This document shows, piece by piece, positions 4,442 to 28,423 of a DNA stretch of 64,000 bases. The position numbers and the translations under genes were made by a program. Under the pieces are notes generated by a model. The model worked only from the letters and a program-made list of their open reading frames with translations. It was not told the origin of the DNA and searched no databases. The DNA lies in the IMG/VR virus record IMGVR_UViG_3300020037_002952, positions 1 through 64,000 of that record. One strand, 5' to 3'. The DNA comes from a virus (Duplodnaviria > Caudoviricetes). How positions within the stretch are numbered: the stretch's first letter is position 1; each line of letters opens with the position of its first letter.

Positions 4442-6454
4442 ATGAGCGATTTTTTGTCCTTCCATTTGTCAGACGATTTCATTGAACCCTACAGCAAAAA
4501 GCGGCCAGACTGGGGCTTCCCCGTAGGCGGAAATAATTACCTATCAGAATTAATTTATGTAAACAAGTATTCCGCACTCAAATCAGATGGTACAAAAGAA
4601 CAGTGGTACGAGACTTGCAGGCGATGCATCGAAGGAATGTTTTCAATCCTAAAAGACCACTGTAAAGGTAACCGAACTATCTGGAATGACCTCAAGGCGC
4701 AGAAGTCAGCTAGAGATGCTTATGATAGAATGTTTCATTTCAAATGGATGCCACCGGGCCGAGGGTTACAACATATGGGTCGGGAAGCTATTCACGTCCG
4801 TCAGGACAGCAGCTTCTTGCAGAATTGCGGGTTTTTGACCACTGATAAACTTTCCAATCACTCTGTTTGGGAAGCTGTTGGACCTTTCTCCCGCATGATG
4901 GAAATGTCAATGTGCGGTGTCGGGATCGGCTTCGACACTCGTGGCGCAGGTAACCTTACAATTCATCAGCCGCTTGAAGAGACGAAATCTTATGTTGTGG
5001 AAGATAGTCGCGAAGGATGGGCTAAAGCTGTTGAAGTTCTCTTAGAGAGTTACTTCTTTAAGAATAGAAACTACGTAGACTTTGATTATTCTCTTATTCG
5101 TCCAGCAGGAGCACCACTTAAAAGCTTTGGTGGTCGAGCTAGTGGACCACAACCTCTGATAGATTGTGTTTTTAGGATTAGATTTCTTTTAGATAATCGT
5201 GATGGCGAAAAGATCTCTTCGAGAGATATCGTTGATGTTATGAACCTTATCGGCAAAGCGGTTGTTGCTGGTGGCGCTCGGAGATCGGCACAAATTGCTT
5301 TCGGAGATCCCACTGATATGGATTACGTTGGAATCAAAGACTGGACGCTTGCTAAAAATAGCCTTCGTACAGATCAAAAGTATGGTTGGGCGTGGAATAG
5401 TAATAACTCCGTCTTTGTTGATGATGTTATTTCCCCTGATCTTATTGAAAAAACAATTCTTAACGGAGAGCCAGGGTATATGTGGCTCGGCCTTGCTCAA
5501 CAGTACGGTAGGATGGCCGATCCAAAGAACGATAAAGACTACCGTGCCATGGGCGGGAACCCATGTTTAGAGCAGACACTTGAGGCAAATGAGTGCTGCA
5601 CACTAGTAGAGACTTTCCCCATTAAACATGACGACTACTCTGACTTCAGAAATACTTTGAAGGCAGCCTATCTTTACGGCAAGGCTGTTACACTACTTCC
5701 GACAGCATGGCCTGAAACCAATGAGGTTATGGCGAGAAACCGTCGCATCGGTTGTTCAATGTCAGGGCTTGCAGAATTTGTTGAAACAAGAGGATGGTTC
5801 GAGCTTTGTAACTGGATGAATGAAGGCTATGAATTCATTTGCCATCGTGACAAGAAGTATTCTGAATGGCTCGCCATTCGGGAGAGTATCAAAAATACAT
5901 CCATTAAACCGTCTGGCACCGTGAGTTTGGTGGCCGCTGTAACGGCGGGGGTGCATTGGCCAGTTAATGCTGGAAGTCACATTAGACGTGTGCGCTACTC
6001 GGTTAATGATCCGCTTGTTAAGGTTTTGGTTGACGCCGGTTACCCTTGCGAACCAATGCATGGTGATCCAGAAAATACCGTTGTCGTGACATTTGTGACA
6101 GAATCTGCCAACATTCGAGGTGAACGAGAAGTAAGCATCTGGGAAAAAGCAGAACTAGCTGTTCTCGCTCAGCGCTGGTGGGCTGATAATCAGGTGTCAG
6201 CAACTGTCACCTTTCTTCCATCGGAAGAGGACCAAATTGCCCCACTTTTAACATCAAAGATTGGCCAGATTAAAGGCATTTCGTTCTTACCTCTCCGAGA
6301 AGAAGAGGTTTACTCACAGGCCCCTTACGAAAGAATTGAACCAGAAGATGCAGCGGCTTTCTTAAAAGGAGTCAAGAAGCTAAAGAATCTATATGCCTCT
6401 GGAGCAGAGTCTGTTGGGGATAAGTTTTGTGACTCTGACGTTTGTACGATCTAA
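4442..6454 (+). CDS. nrdJ: Class II (B12-dependent) monomeric ribonucleotide reductase
   Basis: PPGRGL, NC, GVGIGFD, SGPQPL, VAGGARRSA, NPCLEQ.L...ECCTLVE, SIKPSGT, C-terminal FCDSDVC. Confidence 0.95.
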   Translation: MSDFLSFHLSDDFIEPYSKKRPDWGFPVGGNNYLSELIYVNKYSALKSDGTKEQWYETCRRCIEGMFSILKDHCKGNRTIWNDLKAQKSARDAYDRMFHFKWMPPGRGLQHMGREAIHVRQDSSFLQNCGFLTTDKLSNHSVWEAVGPFSRMMEMSMCGVGIGFDTRGAGNLTIHQPLEETKSYVVEDSREGWAKAVEVLLESYFFKNRNYVDFDYSLIRPAGAPLKSFGGRASGPQPLIDCVFRIRFLLDNRDGEKISSRDIVDVMNLIGKAVVAGGARRSAQIAFGDPTDMDYVGIKDWTLAKNSLRTDQKYGWAWNSNNSVFVDDVISPDLIEKTILNGEPGYMWLGLAQQYGRMADPKNDKDYRAMGGNPCLEQTLEANECCTLVETFPIKHDDYSDFRNTLKAAYLYGKAVTLLPTAWPETNEVMARNRRIGCSMSGLAEFVETRGWFELCNWMNEGYEFICHRDKKYSEWLAIRESIKNTSIKPSGTVSLVAAVTAGVHWPVNAGSHIRRVRYSVNDPLVKVLVDAGYPCEPMHGDPENTVVVTFVTESANIRGEREVSIWEKAELAVLAQRWWADNQVSATVTFLPSEEDQIAPLLTSKIGQIKGISFLPLREEEVYSQAPYERIEPEDAAAFLKGVKKLKNLYASGAESVGDKFCDSDVCTI

Positions 6455-15719: not shown

Positions 15720-16219
15720 GAAGCGATAAGTGGGATAAGAAACTTAACGTTCTAAGATCTAAGTATCCACAAATAACAAATATCAACTGGGGCGAAATCC
15801 TAAGAGATGAACCAGAAGTTTTTTGTGGAGTTGTTGGAAAAGTAACTGTTCCAGACAATACTAAGAAATCTGAAATTCAAACATTTCAAGGGAACGTACA
15901 GTTCGCTAGAGTATCCAACTCAGATTACTCTGAGCTAGAATTTAAAAAAGCTTTCACTATTATTTACAGCAGATATCATGACCCACTTATAGAGAAAACT
16001 AATCTCTCCGAGCGTCACTTGATCGCTCTTATGGAGGGGAGTATAACTCCTACATACGAAGACATGGAAGAGATAGCTCAAGCTATTGGCAGGAATCCAT
16101 CCTTCTTTATGGAGTATAGAATCGCTAAAATTTTAGCGTCTATTGATTCGTATCTTATGGTTAGTCCAGAAACTACTTCTGTTTGGTATAACAAAGTTTC
16201 AAAAAATGAGTCTTTATGA
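15716..16219 (+). CDS. XRE-like HTH protein
   Basis: KTNLSERHLIALMEGSITPTYEDMEEIAQAIG. Confidence 0.6.
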   Translation: MRSDKWDKKLNVLRSKYPQITNINWGEILRDEPEVFCGVVGKVTVPDNTKKSEIQTFQGNVQFARVSNSDYSELEFKKAFTIIYSRYHDPLIEKTNLSERHLIALMEGSITPTYEDMEEIAQAIGRNPSFFMEYRIAKILASIDSYLMVSPETTSVWYNKVSKNESL

Positions 16220-19200
16220 TTTATGAACAGTTAACAGATAATGAGTGTTACCTTTATGCTTTAACTCAAGATGAGTCTGGATTAGATCTGGCAGAGTTTT
16301 GTTATATTGACGAAACTTCTGAAGACGGCTGTTTCCGTGCTTGGCCGATCCAGTACGCTTGGTGGCGCAAAAAAGACCAAAAGCAAATTTCCGCTGGGTC
16401 TAGATCTGTAGGTAAGGCTCTCGCAGTAGATACCCCTATCTTTACTTTAGATGGCTGGAAGCTGATGGGTGATATTGAAGAAGGAGACTTTGTTCTTCAC
16501 CCCTCAGGTGCCCCTAATTGCGTTATAGAAACTCATGAAATTTATGACGATCGACCATGTTACCAGATTGATTTTAGTAATGGTGGTCGTATTACTGCTG
16601 ACTCGAATCACTTATGGGTTGTATGGGATGATTTAAATAACCCCCTCATGGTGACAACACACGCCTTATACAAAAACTATTCCACATATAAAATCCCAGA
16701 ACAACAAACAGCTTGGGCTGGACACATCGCTCCTAAGGCTGTTGAAAGCTGGATCACTATAGATTCAGTTATTAAAGTTGAGCCTCAGCCAACAAGGTGT
16801 ATTACAGTCGAGTCGGATGACGGGATGTTCCTCGCTGGCCAAGCTCTTATCCCTACACACAATAGTTTGAGTATTAAGTTCAGGGCTTTCGCCTTCCCAT
16901 TTTTGAATCCTGGCGAAGAAATGATTGTAACCGCTCCAGAGAATATCCACCTTGAAGCTGTTACAGACAATATCGAAACCCTTTATGTTAATAATAAGCT
17001 AGCAAGTGAGATGATCGTTGGTGGTCGAGGCGGCATCACGCACAGGCCATTCAGAATGAACTTTAGTAATGGTGCCCGTATTATGGGCCGCATCCCGCAA
17101 CTGGATGGATCAGGGATTAAAGGCTGTTTTGAAAAAGGAACCCTAGTGCTGACCCGTAGAGGCTGTATCCCGATTGAGGCCGTAGAGGTCGGGGACATCG
17201 TTTTTACCCATCTTGGTAATTGGAAAAAGGTTACACATACTTGGATTTTCCAAGAAGAAACTCCGGTTCGTGTGCAGGCAAATAGACTCTCCGAAGGGGT
17301 AGTGTGTAGCGGGATAGAACCATTTTGGGCTAGATATGGCAATACTTTGAATATGAAGCAAAATGAACCTGAATGGTGTTTTGCTAAAGATCTTGCAGTT
17401 CAAAAAAACCGCCGTCATCGCTGGAATTTACTCTCTCCAGCCGAGTTCCCCGAAGAAACTCAACCAGCATTTCCGTTTAAATATGACGAAAAGGAGGTAG
17501 AAACACTTTATTGGCTTTTTGGTCTATATCAAGCCGAGGGTTCTTCTTCTATTAAATCTGGGCAGGTTACATTTTCGGTACACGAAGAAGAAGTAGATTG
17601 CGTCAAATCTGCAATCAATCGCATTGGTTATAATGCCGGAGCAACGCGTAAAAAGGGTCTAGGTATGGACGTCTACTTTTCGTCACAGCCCTTTATAACA
17701 TTTCTCAGAGAGGAGTTCAAAGCCTGTAAAGAAAAAACTATTCCCGTATGGATGTATGGTGCCCCAAGAGAACTTAAGGAAGCTTTCTTCTCTGGCGCTC
17801 TCTATGGCGATGGATGCTGGCGACATGAAAGCCTAAACGAGTATATCACAGTGATACGCTCTCTAGCTTACGAAATGAAAATGTTCGCTCAATCCCTAGG
17901 GTATGTAGCCTCAGTACACAGAAATAATACTTCTACTAATTTTGGAGATAATGGTTGGTATAGAGTTTTGGTGAGCGACCAGCCAGAATCTAGTAATTTC
18001 ATCGATGGGCACATTATGAGTGGCGTTCAAAATGTCGAAGAGTTAGCCCCAATGACTGTCTATGACCTCACTGTTGAAGATGATCATAGCTTTACGGCCA
18101 ACAGTGTGTTTGCTAGAAATACTCACCCCATCTGGCTTGAGCAGGATGAGGCTTGTTTCCCAGGAGAGACTCTTGTTTTTACTCATAAAGGACATATAAG
18201 AATCGATGAGATTGAAATTGGGGATTATGTATTAACCCATAAAAACCGATGGAAAAAAGTCCTAAATGTTTGGGATCGTGGTGAGAGAGAAACTATTAAT
18301 GTTAAGGGATTTATAGTCCCGACGCCCACTAGACTCATCAGTAAAACTATTAGGGTCACACCTAATCACAGGTTCTACGCCAAAAAATCTCAATATAGTC
18401 CGACCGAATGGATTCGTGCTGATGAACTTAAGGGATGCCTATGGTCGTATTTTGTTGATGGCAGACTAGTTTTTGGTGCCGTTGGAAAAGAATATGAATT
18501 GGACCCAGAAATTTGTAGAGTTTACGATATCGAAGTTGAAGATGACCATTCATTCGTTGCTGAAGGAATTGTTGTTCATAACAGCGACTACCCAGAAAAG
18601 GGTTGGGACGAAATTGTCGAAACCGTAAAGGTTCAAAATCCTAAAGCTCGTTGGCGAGCCCATGGAGTAACAAGAGGCGTTGGAGATAAATTTGACGAGA
18701 AGATCTCTGGGTCAGAATCAGAGTGGGCAGTTATCCGTCTGCCAGCTATGTATAGACCAAACTGGACTGATAACGAACGTAAATCGAAGATCGAAGAGTA
18801 TCACGGTTATGATTCTCCTAACTACAGAAGAAACATTTTAGGTCTTCCTGGTGACAATAACTCGCCTATGTTTGTTTTGCATAGGATTATGGCTAATGTT
18901 GTTCTTGATCTTGAAGATAATTATAATGCTTTCGAATACTATAATACTTTTATTGATGAAGCGATGATTCGTGAAGTTGACGATATTTTAGAACTTATCG
19001 ATATACCAGCTTCTCATTCAAGTTACAGTAGATTTTGGATCGGAATGGACTTTGGCTGGACGCAAGCACCATCGGCTATTGCTGTTTTCGCTGAGATAAG
19101 AAATCCAAAGAAAGATGAAACTTCACTTAAACTGTTAACTAAAATTATTCTTAAAAGAGTAGCCCCTATTGATCAGTTTAAAGTTATCATGCACCTTATG

Positions 19201-19704
19201 GAAGTCTACCGACCTATTGCTTACGCAATGGACGGTACTGGTGCTGGACAACCGGTAGTTAGTCTTTTAGAAAATAAAGTTGAAGAAGATCCGTCTACTC
19301 AGCATATGTTTGATAGGATTAAGTCCTATAACTTCAGCCAGAAAGTTATTGTCGGCTTTGATAACACTATTAAAATTGATGAGCGTAAAGTTGATGGTTA
19401 TATGGATGCGGCTATTTATCGTCCATTTCTAGAGGCTTCCGCTGATGCCATGAGAGTTTTAATTGATAATACTAGATTTATGCTTCCATACGATAAGGAA
19501 GTTATTGGTGAGCTTCAGTCAACTCCTAAAAATACCCGCACAATGCCCGACGCCTATGGTAAATCTACTCATAAGAAGACTGGACAGCATACATTAGATG
19601 CTATGAGAATGGCGGTTATGGCTTATTCAACTACTCACATTGATGAGTTCATCGCCGCACACCAGAAGATCTGGGTCGCCCCTTCCATGATTTTCCTTGA
19701 CTAA
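16216..19704 (+). CDS. Terminase large subunit with three inteins (spliced about 538 aa)
   Basis: Walker A GSRSVGK|S, Walker B LEQDEA|S, nuclease IGMDFG, DGTGAG, HTLDAMR. Confidence 0.93.
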   Translation: MIYEQLTDNECYLYALTQDESGLDLAEFCYIDETSEDGCFRAWPIQYAWWRKKDQKQISAGSRSVGKALAVDTPIFTLDGWKLMGDIEEGDFVLHPSGAPNCVIETHEIYDDRPCYQIDFSNGGRITADSNHLWVVWDDLNNPLMVTTHALYKNYSTYKIPEQQTAWAGHIAPKAVESWITIDSVIKVEPQPTRCITVESDDGMFLAGQALIPTHNSLSIKFRAFAFPFLNPGEEMIVTAPENIHLEAVTDNIETLYVNNKLASEMIVGGRGGITHRPFRMNFSNGARIMGRIPQLDGSGIKGCFEKGTLVLTRRGCIPIEAVEVGDIVFTHLGNWKKVTHTWIFQEETPVRVQANRLSEGVVCSGIEPFWARYGNTLNMKQNEPEWCFAKDLAVQKNRRHRWNLLSPAEFPEETQPAFPFKYDEKEVETLYWLFGLYQAEGSSSIKSGQVTFSVHEEEVDCVKSAINRIGYNAGATRKKGLGMDVYFSSQPFITFLREEFKACKEKTIPVWMYGAPRELKEAFFSGALYGDGCWRHESLNEYITVIRSLAYEMKMFAQSLGYVASVHRNNTSTNFGDNGWYRVLVSDQPESSNFIDGHIMSGVQNVEELAPMTVYDLTVEDDHSFTANSVFARNTHPIWLEQDEACFPGETLVFTHKGHIRIDEIEIGDYVLTHKNRWKKVLNVWDRGERETINVKGFIVPTPTRLISKTIRVTPNHRFYAKKSQYSPTEWIRADELKGCLWSYFVDGRLVFGAVGKEYELDPEICRVYDIEVEDDHSFVAEGIVVHNSDYPEKGWDEIVETVKVQNPKARWRAHGVTRGVGDKFDEKISGSESEWAVIRLPAMYRPNWTDNERKSKIEEYHGYDSPNYRRNILGLPGDNNSPMFVLHRIMANVVLDLEDNYNAFEYYNTFIDEAMIREVDDILELIDIPASHSSYSRFWIGMDFGWTQAPSAIAVFAEIRNPKKDETSLKLLTKIILKRVAPIDQFKVIMHLMEVYRPIAYAMDGTGAGQPVVSLLENKVEEDPSTQHMFDRIKSYNFSQKVIVGFDNTIKIDERKVDGYMDAAIYRPFLEASADAMRVLIDNTRFMLPYDKEVIGELQSTPKNTRTMPDAYGKSTHKKTGQHTLDAMRMAVMAYSTTHIDEFIAAHQKIWVAPSMIFLD
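16417..16863 (+). mobile_element. Class 3 mini-intein (149 aa) in the TerL P-loop
   Basis: Starts with Ala (ALAVDTP); WCT triad: HLW, TRCITV, PTHN; +1 Ser. Confidence 0.88.
17125..18120 (+). mobile_element. Intein (332 aa) with LAGLIDADG endonuclease in TerL
   Basis: CFEKGTLVLT...VYDLTVEDDHSFTANSVFARN, +1 Thr; FGLYQAEG and FSGALYGDG helices. Confidence 0.9.
18154..18582 (+). mobile_element. Mini-intein (143 aa) in TerL
   Basis: CFPGETLVFT...VTPNHRF...VYDIEVEDDHSFVAEGIVVHN, +1 Ser. Confidence 0.92.
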
Positions 19705-24911: not shown

Positions 24912-25841
24912 ATGTTTAAAGAAACAAACGCTGAACTAAAGGCCCTCCAAGATCAGATCGACCAGCTTAATGCTGAAGCGGCTGATAAGGTTCGGGATCA
25001 GGCATGGCGCACGGAACGCTCACATGAAATCGCCGAAGAAATCTTCGAAGGTTTCATGAGTGAAAACCTCGTAGACCAGCTTACAACCACAGAGTATCTT
25101 CCACGTAACGGTCGGTCCACAATCCGCGAAACCCGCGGCCTAAAGGCTTTCCACGTTGCCCGTGGTGGTTACATCGAAGAGAGCTTCTTGCACTCAGAGG
25201 TCACAGAGATTGAACGAGATCAGATTGGTTTCCACGTTGTGGAGCACCTTGACCGTCTCGAAACCAATTTCGCAGTGACAGCTTCAGATCTTATTGATCT
25301 TGGCAAGAAACGTCTTGACGCAGAAATCAACCGGCGTGTGCTCGCAACCTTCCAGGCTGCGGTTCCGTCAAGCTCACCTTACTATACAGCAGCTTCCGGC
25401 GTTACTCTTACACAGATTAACACAGCCATTGCAGCAGTGCAGGATGAGACAGCGGTTGGCGAACTTCCGGTCATTATCGGTCGAGCACCGATGATCCGTA
25501 AGATCGAAGATGCGCTTACAGCGAACAACACCTACTCACTTTTTCTCCCGGAAACAAATGAGTCGCTTCTACGCTCAGGAGTCCTTGGCTCCTACCGTGG
25601 CTGCACCCTTGTTCAGTTGAAGAACTATCTTGATGAGGATGGCGATTCTTATTTCCCCGGAAATGAGCTTTGGTTCCTTGGTAAAGATGCTGGAAAGACA
25701 GCCTTCTTCGGTACTCCTCGTATCCATGATATGGTTGACTTCGAAGATTACTGGCACTATAGCTATCGTGCCGATTATGGTACGATCGTGACGCGGCCAG
25801 AACGGACTCGTAGAATCGTGGATTCAACAGTTTCCGCTTAA
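24912..25841 (+). CDS. Major capsid protein (HK97 fold)
   Basis: 309 aa, strong RBS, VARGGYI and GVLGSYRG..LV motifs, followed by a strong terminator. Confidence 0.85.
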   Translation: MFKETNAELKALQDQIDQLNAEAADKVRDQAWRTERSHEIAEEIFEGFMSENLVDQLTTTEYLPRNGRSTIRETRGLKAFHVARGGYIEESFLHSEVTEIERDQIGFHVVEHLDRLETNFAVTASDLIDLGKKRLDAEINRRVLATFQAAVPSSSPYYTAASGVTLTQINTAIAAVQDETAVGELPVIIGRAPMIRKIEDALTANNTYSLFLPETNESLLRSGVLGSYRGCTLVQLKNYLDEDGDSYFPGNELWFLGKDAGKTAFFGTPRIHDMVDFEDYWHYSYRADYGTIVTRPERTRRIVDSTVSA

Positions 25842-25869: not shown

Positions 25870-25901
25870 AAGATCCGCCCTTCGGGGCGGATCTTGCTTT
25901 T
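25870..25901 (+). terminator. Intrinsic terminator after the MCP
   Basis: AAGATCCGCCC-TTCG-GGGCGGATCTT followed by a T-rich tail (cUUCGg loop). Confidence 0.92.
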
Positions 25902-25906
25902 ATCGT

Positions 25907-25935
25907 TTGCTTTTTAAAAGAAAGTGTGATATACT
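25907..25935 (+). promoter_or_regulatory. Sigma70/SigA-type promoter (leaderless)
   Basis: TTGCTT-N17-TATACT with TG, 6 nt to ATG 25942; close copy of the promoter at 7208. Confidence 0.75.
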
Positions 25936-25941
25936 GGCATT

Positions 25942-27861
25942 ATGACTACAGCACAACTCTTTAAAGCTTTCGGCGAAGAAAAAACTATCATGGACTGGGC
26001 CAAAGATCCACGATGTGAGGTTTCGGCTGGTACACTTAGAATTCGTATTAAAAAAGGTATGACGCTAGAGGAAGCCATTTCTCAACCCAAGCTTCCACTA
26101 TGGGAGGCTTTTGGTGAATGTAAAACTTGGACCGAGTGGTGGAGCGATCCACGTAGAATTGTTGAAAACGAAAGAACTGTTCGCTCACGTCTAGATGCTG
26201 GCTGGTCATTTGAAGATGCTATTACTAAAAAGGTTGGCCAGGAACGACAATTATATCAAGCTTTTAATGAGTCTAAAACAGTCACCGAGTGGGCTGATGA
26301 TGAAAGATGTGTTGTTGGGTTTTCTACCTTATGGAGTCGGCTTCAAAAAGGATGGGAATTTTCAAGAGCATTAACAGAAAAATCCGAGGGAGTAACGGAA
26401 TACACTTTTGACAGCGAAACCAAAAGTCTAAGCAAATGGTCTATAGACGACAGATGTGTTGTTGCTTGGAATGTTTTACGGCGTAGAGTTGAGGATGAAA
26501 AATGGGATTTAAAAAAAGCTTTAACAACTCCCGTTCTTATTGAATTTGAAGCCTTTGGCGAAACTAAGTGCTTGGAACATTGGATTAAAGATGAAAGATG
26601 TTTAGTTTCGTGGCAAACAGTCCGCTATCGGGTGAATAATTTAGGTCTTCAGCCTGGCGACAATATTGAAACTGTTCTTACCGATCCAATAAAAGATTTG
26701 ACAATAACTACTCACGATGCTTTTGGTGAATCGAAAACTCTGACTGAGTGGTCGCTAGATGAAAGATGCGTTCACAATAATCGTGACTTATTAAGTTCGA
26801 GGCTTTACATTGGTTGGGATATCGAAAAAGCAATACAAGAAGATTATGTTACTAGGGACGCTAAAACATATAAAGCCTTTAATAAGGACTTGTCTCTCTA
26901 TCGTTGGGTTAATGAACCAGAATGTGTTGTTCAGCACCCCGTAACGATATACAGCCGAATTCAAGGCAATATGCCAGTAGAAGAAGCTTTAACTAGAGAG
27001 GTTGGCATGTCAAGCTCATATCCAGAACAAATGCTTGCCAACTATATTGAGTCTCTTGGATTTGATATTGTTCGTAATGACCGCACGGTAATCCCGCCGA
27101 AAGAGCTAGACATTTTCATTCCAGAAAAAAATGTTGCAATTGAGTTTAACGGACTGTACTGGCATTCAGAAAAATTCAATCATAAAAACTATCATTACAA
27201 CAAATATATCTCCTGTGAAGCTAAGAATGTCCGGCTTATCCAAATTTGGGAAGATGACTGGAATTTTAAACAAGATATTGTTTGCAAAATGCTCGCCCAA
27301 AAACTTGGAGTATTAAGCCAGCAATCTGTTTATGCTAGAAAATGTAAAATAGATTCTAGCGTTGGAGTTAATGAAGCGAAACAATTTCTCAATGAAAACC
27401 ATATACAAGGCTGGACTACTTCTTCATACTACTACGGGTTAAGATTTGAGGGTCTGCTCGTTGCATTGGTATGCATGAAGAAAGTTGATGATAAAAACGC
27501 TGTTTGGGATCTGGTCAGGTTCGCCACATCAGCAAATGTTCCGGGCGGGTTCTCCAAACTTCTCAAAGCTTTCAGAAAAGACCACGATGGAGCTATTAAA
27601 ACTTTCGCTGATCTCACTTTATCAGATGGTGGACTATATTATCAAACAGGATTTGTTATGGATAAGTTTATCTCACCAGACTATTTCTACGTAGAAACTG
27701 GGAATCCAATACGATCGCACAAGTTTAGCTACAGAAAAAAAAGATTTAAAAATGATCCTGAACTTTTCTATGACGAGAGCATGACTGAAGGCGAGCTTGC
27801 CGCTGCTAATGGTTTGTTGAAAATTTATGATGCCGGTAAGTTACGGTTTGTTTTAAAGTAG
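25942..27861 (+). CDS. Free-standing Hef-like endonuclease: 7 tandem ~50-aa repeats + PD-(D/E)XK (Vsr-like) nuclease + GNAT/Mom-like domain
   Basis: Repeats AFGExKTxxEWxxDxRC..TLxxR..GW..EEA; nuclease ELDIFIPEKNVAIEFNGLYWHS; C-terminal YARKC..FLNENHIQG..LVRFA..GGFSKLL..LYYQTGF. Confidence 0.8.
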   Translation: MTTAQLFKAFGEEKTIMDWAKDPRCEVSAGTLRIRIKKGMTLEEAISQPKLPLWEAFGECKTWTEWWSDPRRIVENERTVRSRLDAGWSFEDAITKKVGQERQLYQAFNESKTVTEWADDERCVVGFSTLWSRLQKGWEFSRALTEKSEGVTEYTFDSETKSLSKWSIDDRCVVAWNVLRRRVEDEKWDLKKALTTPVLIEFEAFGETKCLEHWIKDERCLVSWQTVRYRVNNLGLQPGDNIETVLTDPIKDLTITTHDAFGESKTLTEWSLDERCVHNNRDLLSSRLYIGWDIEKAIQEDYVTRDAKTYKAFNKDLSLYRWVNEPECVVQHPVTIYSRIQGNMPVEEALTREVGMSSSYPEQMLANYIESLGFDIVRNDRTVIPPKELDIFIPEKNVAIEFNGLYWHSEKFNHKNYHYNKYISCEAKNVRLIQIWEDDWNFKQDIVCKMLAQKLGVLSQQSVYARKCKIDSSVGVNEAKQFLNENHIQGWTTSSYYYGLRFEGLLVALVCMKKVDDKNAVWDLVRFATSANVPGGFSKLLKAFRKDHDGAIKTFADLTLSDGGLYYQTGFVMDKFISPDYFYVETGNPIRSHKFSYRKKRFKNDPELFYDESMTEGELAAANGLLKIYDAGKLRFVLK

Positions 27862-27907
27862 TCGATATATATTATAGTATACAGTTTATGGTTCAAAGGA
27901 GATAGAA

Positions 27908-28423
27908 ATGGCAGCAACAGATATTTACGAAGTGTGGATGAATCCGAATGCCGGTCTTGTTTATATTGATAAGACAGACCAGAATGGCAAAGTTCAGTCT
28001 ACTTGTATTCTACCAGGACAAAAGTTTAATATTACCCCTGATGATCGCCGGAACAACACCGAGCGAGCTTGGAAACCGGAGGCAGATTTGTTTAGTAATG
28101 GAACACTATCACAGGTAAAGCTTCTTGATACCGAGGCAGATTATGCTGACCTTACCGAAAACCCGAATATTATCGGCGAGTCAGAGATCAAAGATCTTTT
28201 CAATCTCAAAGCGGTTGAATTCAAGAAGCGCATTGCCGGGATTACTAATGATCGAGTCCTTACTCGCATTAAAGAGTATTCTGAGGATGAGAAGGCTGAA
28301 GCTACCGTTGCTCAGCAGAAAGCTGTTAAAGCCCGTCTAGAAGAACTTATCCCTGAAGATGATCCTTCACGTAGACTTCCAGATCGGACTAAGGGCGAGA
28401 TCACTCCAATTTATATGTCCTAA
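27908..28423 (+). CDS. Hypothetical protein (head morphogenesis region)
   Basis: 171-aa ORF with AAGGAG RBS and an upstream GTCGATAT motif. Confidence 0.7.
   Translation: MAATDIYEVWMNPNAGLVYIDKTDQNGKVQSTCILPGQKFNITPDDRRNNTERAWKPEADLFSNGTLSQVKLLDTEADYADLTENPNIIGESEIKDLFNLKAVEFKKRIAGITNDRVLTRIKEYSEDEKAEATVAQQKAVKARLEELIPEDDPSRRLPDRTKGEITPIYMS

Follow-up and report, generated by a model that had tools for sequence, protein, structure and literature searches.

Hef-like homing endonucleases, such as Hef of phage U5 and those of the Campylobacter CP81/CPX-type phages, the Bacillus phages AR9 and PBS1 and the Pseudomonas phage PA5oct, are encoded by free-standing genes located between other phage genes, and combine a variable N-terminal DNA-binding part with a shared nuclease and C-terminal core. 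Hef-type enzymes were placed in the EDxHD family (Taylor et al. 2011, PMC3239194), whose prototype, I-Bth0305I, also has an N-terminal DNA-binding part followed by a nuclease of the Vsr-type fold (PMC3239194); in that enzyme the flanking modules make mostly non-specific contacts with DNA, and the core specificity comes from the nuclease dimer (PMC3239194). In jumbo phages, Mom domains fused to nucleases of the restriction endonuclease (REase) fold have been described, five of them in PA5oct (Iyer et al. 2021, PMC7824862), and both the nuclease and Mom fusion and the idea of "cut and protect" are already published (Iyer et al. 2021, PMC7824862; Taylor et al. 2011, PMC3239194). Here we analyse a gene at positions 25942-27861 (+) of the first 64 kb (the window, meaning the whole stretch of DNA that was analysed) of a 113-kb IMG/VR virus record, which derives from an uncultured large phage and is 56% complete according to CheckV. 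The product, of 639 amino acids (aa), is probably a Hef-type free-standing homing endonuclease with a seven-module, putatively DNA-binding arm, a Vsr-like nuclease and a Mom-family GNAT domain.

The gene is a single intact open reading frame (ORF; protein P0001), present in one copy in the 113-kb record, and neither the gene nor its repeat was found again elsewhere in the window or in the record. Its G+C content is 0.38-0.40, compared with 0.49 in the capsid region just upstream. The protein is organised in three parts, namely seven repeats of ~47 aa (aa 5-354), a Vsr/EDxHD-type nuclease (aa ~354-463) and a GNAT domain (aa ~464-639), so that the ORF, the profile matches and the structure matches bear out the anatomy read from the sequence in an initial annotation of this DNA (seven repeats, a Vsr-like nuclease and a Mom-like GNAT tail). 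The features are listed below, with the repeats delimited by alignment, profile and AlphaFold.

25942..27861 (+): probable Hef-type homing endonuclease gene, 639 aa (PHROG 3339 match and annotated phage relatives)
25954..26094 (+): repeat 1, aa 5-51
26095..26235 (+): repeat 2, aa 52-98
26248..26388 (+): repeat 3, aa 103-149
26392..26532 (+): repeat 4, aa 151-197, with the most diverged hairpin (TFDSETKS)
26539..26679 (+): repeat 5, aa 200-246, with an altered helix 3
26707..26847 (+): repeat 6, aa 256-302
26863..27003 (+): repeat 7, aa 308-354
27001..27330 (+): Vsr-like (EDxHD family) nuclease domain, aa ~354-463 (sequence and structure matches)
27331..27858 (+): Mom-related GNAT-fold domain, aa ~464-639 (structure and profile matches)

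The C-terminal half relates the protein to Hef. PHROG 3339, annotated "homing endonuclease", matches aa 351-638 with an E-value of 9.4e-100, and PHROG 559 matches with 7.7e-72. By tblastn, this half is matched by 417 phage records, many of them annotated as Hef-like homing endonucleases, to which the core (aa ~318-639) is 36-38% identical; PA5oct gives five Hef-like matches, which are presumably the five Mom fusions of Iyer et al. 2021. The N-terminal half is covered by none of the 417 records, and the annotated Hef-like proteins have no counterpart to the seven-repeat arm. A megablast search with the locus as query returned no close relative among 50,697 phage records. The nuclease and Mom-like core is common to 3,266 homologues, and all residues that are invariant across 114 of them are kept in the window protein. 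In 38 of the 120 best homologues the core is preceded by this repeat, in one to eight copies, and other homologues carry zinc ribbons (PF14311, treble-clef), classical helix-turn-helix (HTH) domains or DUF723 instead. Because these alternate before the same core, the arm is, judging from the sequences, an exchangeable and putatively DNA-binding part.

The C-terminal 286 aa were modelled by AlphaFold with a predicted local distance difference test (pLDDT) value of 96.9. Residues 1-104 of this model resemble the NGO0050 endonuclease-like protein (3hrl, Z-score 12.6), I-Bth0305I (3r3p, Z 11.6) and Vsr (1cw0, Z 11.3), and the last two matches confirm the PD-(D/E)XK/Vsr-like fold that the motifs had suggested. 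The superposition on 3r3p aligns 94 of 97 residues with a root mean square deviation of 2.5, and by sequence the same pair is related with an E-value of 0.012. The residues E388, D390, E401, G404, H408, H418, K421, W436 and D438 are invariant in the 114 homologues; they include the acidic and histidine residues (E388, D390, E401, H408, H418 and D438) that would make up the composite catalytic EDxHD motif. Unlike the window protein, I-Bth0305I is intron-encoded, its frame of ~270 aa ends soon after the nuclease with no Mom-like domain, and at its N-terminus it has two NUMOD2-like motifs, which are not matched by our repeat profile (scores below 0); we therefore rejected identity of the repeat with these motifs.

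Residues 111-286 of the model adopt a GNAT fold, as anticipated for this domain. In Foldseek the best match is Mu Mom (8bv8, E-value 8.5e-6), followed by acetyltransferases, and Mu Mom also gives the longest VIA structural alignment, with 141 residues, 16% identity and a Z-score of 9.4. The other GNAT proteins score between 9.3 and 10.3, and Z-scores alone do not separate Mu Mom from ordinary acetyltransferases. At E ≤ 10 the Pfam Mom model (PF25680) finds no match in the window protein itself, and the core paralogues, which are 44-49% identical, reach 31.5 bits in the case of P0114 (cut-off 27.1) or fall just under the cut-off (P0058 and P0061). The family profile aligns to Mu Mom with an E-value of 0.012 (hhalign). 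Because core paralogues match PF25680 and the family profile aligns to Mu Mom, it is the sequence evidence that would tie the domain to Mom specifically.

Mu Mom is a Gly-tRNA-dependent DNA adenine modifier that shares with the window domain the GNAT fold and the H, R, FAD and G..Y motifs. The residues that it needs for momylation are H58, Y59, R111, S124, D149, R151 and Y159 (PMC13219725). In the profile-to-single-sequence alignment, where loops could shift, H58, R111, D149 and Y159 of Mom pair with the conserved H487, R526, D557 and Y566, and the window domain retains the glycine-rich beta4-alpha3 loop. The loop of Mom that carries S124 is missing from it, and T559 and I488 occupy the places of R151 and Y59. 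The domain differs from Mu Mom in being fused to a nuclease and in having no counterparts of the essential S124 and R151. It is as conserved as the nuclease across the 114 homologues, with H487, G490, R526, G535, G536, D557, S561, G563, Y566, K594, N623, G632 and K633 invariant or nearly so, and as judged from this conservation it is part of the family core. Its role is most likely DNA or cofactor binding, or a modification other than Mu momylation.

The location of the gene also points to a homing element. The terminator of a YonB-family gene, putatively the capsid gene, precedes it, and the next structural gene follows. Relatives of this locus were found by protein search with the capsid-like protein, while an IMG/VR peptide-pattern search with the same protein gave no relative. 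After the capsid-like gene they contain the following:

L003, capsid-like protein 66% identical: an ortholog with 3 repeats, 429 aa
L004, capsid-like protein 63% identical: an ortholog with 6 repeats, 582 aa
L006 and L007, capsid-like protein 59% identical: no insert, the terminator being followed directly by the next gene
L005, capsid-like protein 57% identical: glycosyl- and methyltransferases (L005:7017-12734)
L008, capsid-like protein 52% identical: an 853-aa pectate-lyase-like beta-helix protein (L008:6023-8584)

The endonuclease gene therefore fills this site in the window, L003 and L004, whereas L006 and L007 have no insert there and L005 and L008 have other cargo. This pattern of presence and absence is, at the level of gene content, that of a free-standing homing endonuclease gene, and the polymorphism among related phages upholds the earlier suggestion of a homing element. 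Because L005 and L008 hold unrelated cargo at the same gap, the region after the capsid-like gene is apparently also a general insertion hot spot.

Two signals are found between the capsid-like gene and the endonuclease gene:

25870..25895 (+): intrinsic terminator with an 11-bp stem, TTCG loop and T-rich tail, which ends the YonB-family (putative capsid) gene at 24912-25841 (scan and sequence)
25907..25935 (+): sigma-70-type promoter-like element, with TTGCTT at 25907-25912, a 17-nt spacer and an extended -10 box, TGATATACT, at 25927-35 (read from the sequence)

A hairpin is present at the aligned terminator position in all five loci compared (the window, L003, L004, L006 and L007). The promoter-like element is not listed by a simple consensus promoter scan. 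TGATATACT ends 6 nt before the ATG and a Shine-Dalgarno sequence is absent; in the L003 and L004 orthologs, TGGTATAAT is likewise followed by 6 nt and the ATG. A leaderless endonuclease mRNA is plausible because of this -10 box 6 nt before the start codon, the missing Shine-Dalgarno sequence and the recurrence of the geometry in both orthologs, and the initial annotation, which placed a leaderless-type promoter right after the terminator, agrees with these observations.

The arm is the part of the protein that sets it apart from described Hef enzymes. Alignment, AlphaFold and the profile search all recover the seven tandem units and their consensus, and PHROG families match the repeats in several stretches (phrog_1065 with an E-value of 2.5e-25, phrog_3377, "HNH endonuclease", with 3.5e-19); the families that match are of unknown function or annotated as "HNH endonuclease". 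The mean identity between the seven units is 34.6%, ranging from 19 to 50%. No tandem repeat is found at the DNA level, the repetition being visible in the protein only, and with units this diverged the duplications must therefore be old. In the AlphaFold model (pLDDT 91), a beta-hairpin and three-helix unit recurs seven times, in the order two-stranded hairpin (AFGE.KT), short helix (.EW..D), loop (PRC.V), nine-residue helix (..TL..RL..) and short third helix (W..E.AI). Low confidence is limited to some of the linkers, and the predicted template modelling score (pTM) of the array is 0.49, which suggests beads on a string with no fixed superhelix or inter-repeat geometry predicted.

We measured conservation of the unit on 958 repeats from 173 proteins. 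The near-invariant scaffold consists of G7, W15, D18, R20, R31 and A41, each conserved in at least 95% of the repeats (at least 96% for all of these but G7), and the most variable profile positions are 13, 22, 25, 26, 29, 30, 33 and 34. Among the 46 positions, eight are above 3.5 bits in this set, and thirteen are above 3 bits in the Hef-linked repeats. The initial annotation had placed the variability in the segment between the C-x-V motif and the following arginine; this is correct in that positions 24-26 and 29-30 are among the most variable (3.0-3.9 bits), but positions 13, 22, 33 and 34 vary equally. Helix 2 has a variable exposed face, rich in basic and polar residues, and carries a mean charge of +2.0, with +1.0 in the preceding loop, about -1.1 in helix 1 and about -1.2 in helix 3. 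This polarity, calculated from the sequences, would fit a DNA-facing helix 2. Successive units follow each other at intervals of 46 to 73 aa, most often 50 aa.

Known module families offer little match to this unit. No Pfam model matches any single repeat at E ≤ 10, no NUMOD1, NUMOD3 or NUMOD4 is found in the whole protein at E ≤ 1, and there are only faint links to PVL_ORF50 (PF07768). Foldseek of the array against the PDB returned nothing below an E-value of 0.07. Since this search was empty and the structural matches to solved HTH proteins reach Z-scores of 3.5 at most, the assignment of the predicted unit to the HTH fold is tentative. The best matches among predicted viral structures (BFVD) carry the annotations HNH endonuclease (E-value 1.2e-6), intron-associated endonuclease, GIY-YIG endonuclease, NUMOD1, PVL ORF-50-like and HTH homing endonuclease; look-alikes in the ESM Atlas all scored below 0.9 and are leads only.

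A profile built from 16 repeats and searched against a library of 1.84 billion proteins (threshold E ≤ 1e-3) matches 10,008 representative proteins (clusters at 50% identity), with 1-28 copies per chain. The repeat occurs alone, as in 92 of the 131 best new matches, or fused to Hef or HNH-annotated nucleases; single GIY-YIG-type Pfam matches are also found among the repeat proteins, and the N-terminal domains of the others mostly have no Pfam assignment. It is thus an arm or tail on nucleases of several families (Hef core, HNH-annotated and GIY-YIG-type). Against phages, tblastn with the repeat arm gave only three weak matches, in Bacillus phages Spock and Anthos. Gene 163 of Spock (Spock_163), annotated as an HNH endonuclease, carries two copies at its C-terminus (i-E 3e-8), and no Pfam HNH model matched this protein. 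This pair and the fusions to the Hef core substantiate the earlier remark that similar modules occur as tails of phage nucleases.

Arrays without any nuclease can be very long. Two repeat-only proteins, one of 1537 aa with 28 repeats and one of 1202 aa, are encoded by neighbouring genes (L011:5001-13258, ENA contig k141_893084), which a ResIII helicase gene adjoins. An 11-repeat protein lies in ordinary chromosomal surroundings in an Armatimonadota metagenome-assembled genome (L012:5001-7190, GCA_018268395.1). Like the repeat, NUMODs and the HTH tails of the I-TevI and I-HmuI type are small modules strung beside phage nuclease domains of different families, from which the repeat differs in having no Pfam NUMOD or HTH match, an extra N-terminal beta-hairpin and far longer arrays (up to 28 units).

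Considering these data together, the arm more probably serves as a chain of HTH-like modules for anchoring than as a code of the TALE or zinc-finger kind, as suggested by the basic and variable helix 2 on a conserved scaffold, the irregular spacing, the identity of only ~35% between units and the net acidic array. By analogy, such a string of small modules fits I-TevI, I-HmuI and I-Bth0305I. The Hef-type gene would have its own extended -10 promoter and yield a leaderless mRNA, and the arm would anchor the enzyme on a long segment of DNA. The nuclease would then cut near the empty site in co-infecting relatives, perhaps, by analogy with I-Bth0305I, as a dimer that supplies the central specificity, and recombinational repair would insert a copy of the gene with its flanking sequences into the cleaved genome.

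Several observations weigh against this assignment. The array of this protein is net acidic (isoelectric point 5.3, net charge -10), which is unusual for a DNA-binding arm, and its fold matches to solved HTH proteins, which include MerR-type HTH domains, the DNA-binding domain of I-TevI (1t2t, Z 2.9) and pSK1 Par, are weak (Z 3.5-2.5). It is difficult to see how same-site orthologs with three, six and seven repeats could have one long target in common. Finally, the "empty" spacer of L006 shares 16 nt exactly with the last codons of the L003 gene, a stretch that may be a deletion scar or, equally, a conserved promoter. As promoter conservation explains this stretch equally well, we set it aside as proof of a gene remnant.

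The Mom-like domain raises the question of a single-chain restriction and protection weapon, in which this domain modifies the phage's own adenines and the nuclease degrades unmodified DNA of the host or of competitors, as was proposed exactly for the jumbo-phage fusions of Mom and REase by Iyer et al. 2021 (PMC7824862). Conservation of the GNAT domain as strong as that of the nuclease, the retention of the glycine-rich loop and of counterparts, invariant or nearly so, to four of the Mom residues (H58, R111, D149 and Y159), and a paralogue that reaches the Pfam Mom model all speak in its favour. Nevertheless, we consider such a weapon unlikely here, with the S124 loop deleted and R151 replaced by T559, both essential in Mu Mom, with the window protein itself below the Pfam model, and with a sequence-anchoring arm and a presence/absence pattern at a single locus that suit site-specific homing better than bulk restriction. 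Sandegren and colleagues are said to have reported in 2005 that Hef of U5 cuts the DNA of its own genome too, which we also count against it. An enzyme that has stopped homing, and that either serves another purpose, such as DNA-binding regulation, or is being lost, would account for the acidic array, the unrelated cargo at the site in some relatives and the absence of the gene from others; given the intact ORF, the presence of every residue invariant in the 114 homologues and a promoter geometry shared with the orthologs, this is very improbable.

TALE, zinc-finger, PUF and PPR arrays are also tandem small modules with a conserved scaffold, variable surface residues and a varying number of units, and the initial annotation proposed that each repeat reads a few base pairs through a variable helix, which gives a long, possibly re-programmable target; the order of repeats would then spell this target through helix 2. 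The conserved scaffold with a variable basic and polar face on helix 2 is what such a reader would display, as is a repeat number that varies from one to eight before the same nuclease core and reaches 28 in stand-alone proteins. The proposal is nonetheless unsupported by our data, and we regard it as improbable. Compared with these arrays, the repeats are irregular in period (46-73 aa) and have diverged strongly, and variability is not confined to a few candidate specificity positions: it is high at 8-13 of the 46 positions, many of them outside helix 2. The predicted inter-repeat geometry is flexible (pTM 0.49), the HTH matches and the isoelectric point point the same way, and the DNA contacts of the flanking modules in I-Bth0305I are mostly non-specific (PMC3239194). 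Repeats of the same-site orthologs correspond only weakly by position, the best pairs being repeat 2 with the first repeat of P0013/P0002 (61-63%) and repeat 7 with the last repeat of P0004, the L004 ortholog (51%). In the two clusters compared, changes between near-identical alleles are not consistently enriched in helix 2, and within 90% clusters the alleles differ at scattered positions of the array or not at all. In the P0028 cluster variation is higher in the array (9.5%) than in the core (3.5%), but at scattered positions. Sequence-specific contacts by individual units may still be compatible with this evidence against a TALE-like code.

In the P0002 cluster (586 aa, 6 repeats), 12 near-identical alleles have an invariant array and 30 variable sites (10.5%) in the nuclease and Mom-like core, a pattern opposite to that of the P0028 cluster that may reflect recombination within the core.

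The Hef gene type is already known both experimentally and computationally, and this copy alone adds little to it. The novelty lies in the 47-aa repeat family and in the natural series of 0, 3, 6 and 7 repeats at one locus. The repeat appears to be less described than the Hef and Mom core, as we found no description of it, and what DNA it binds, or how, has apparently never been asked. If it is sequence-specific it would be of interest to nuclease engineers, and the same-site orthologs with 3, 6 and 7 repeats beside empty sites provide a natural series for the effect of repeats on target length and homing. What the Mom-like domain does in Hef enzymes is also a testable question. There is a small chance that the 47-aa unit is a concatenable DNA-reading module in which helix 2 specifies a few base pairs, coupled in Hef to a nuclease and to marking of its own site by the Mom-like domain; should this be true, it would represent a new programmable DNA-binding scaffold.

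A further signal overlaps the 3' end of the endonuclease gene:

27842..27868 (+): candidate sigma-28-type promoter of the downstream gene, TACGGTTT, 11 nt, GTCGATAT (sequence and alignment of L003, L004 and L006)

This element overlaps the end of the endonuclease coding sequence, stop codon included, and is followed by AAGGAG at 27896-27901 and an ATG at 27908. A TAAAGTTT-like box, 11 nt and a GTCGATAT-like box are conserved before the next gene (window 27842-27868; L003:8285-8330; L006:6000-6040). As TAAAGTTT is the -35 box of sigma-28-type (FliA) promoters, the pair may constitute a sigma-28-type late promoter of that gene. The 16 nt that L006 has in common with the L003 gene are located at this place; they resemble such a -35 box, 11 nt ahead of a GTCG.T.. 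box.

Other selfish elements are present in the same phages. A 1162-aa ORF at 16216-19704 of the window contains Hint/intein-splicing and LAGLIDADG domains, and its counterpart genes, located upstream in L003 and L004, also carry inteins; to judge from these genes, the phage group hosts several kinds of selfish elements. The window also encodes a class II (B12-dependent) ribonucleotide reductase at 4442-6454, and the homolog of this gene in L005 carries a LAGLIDADG intein.

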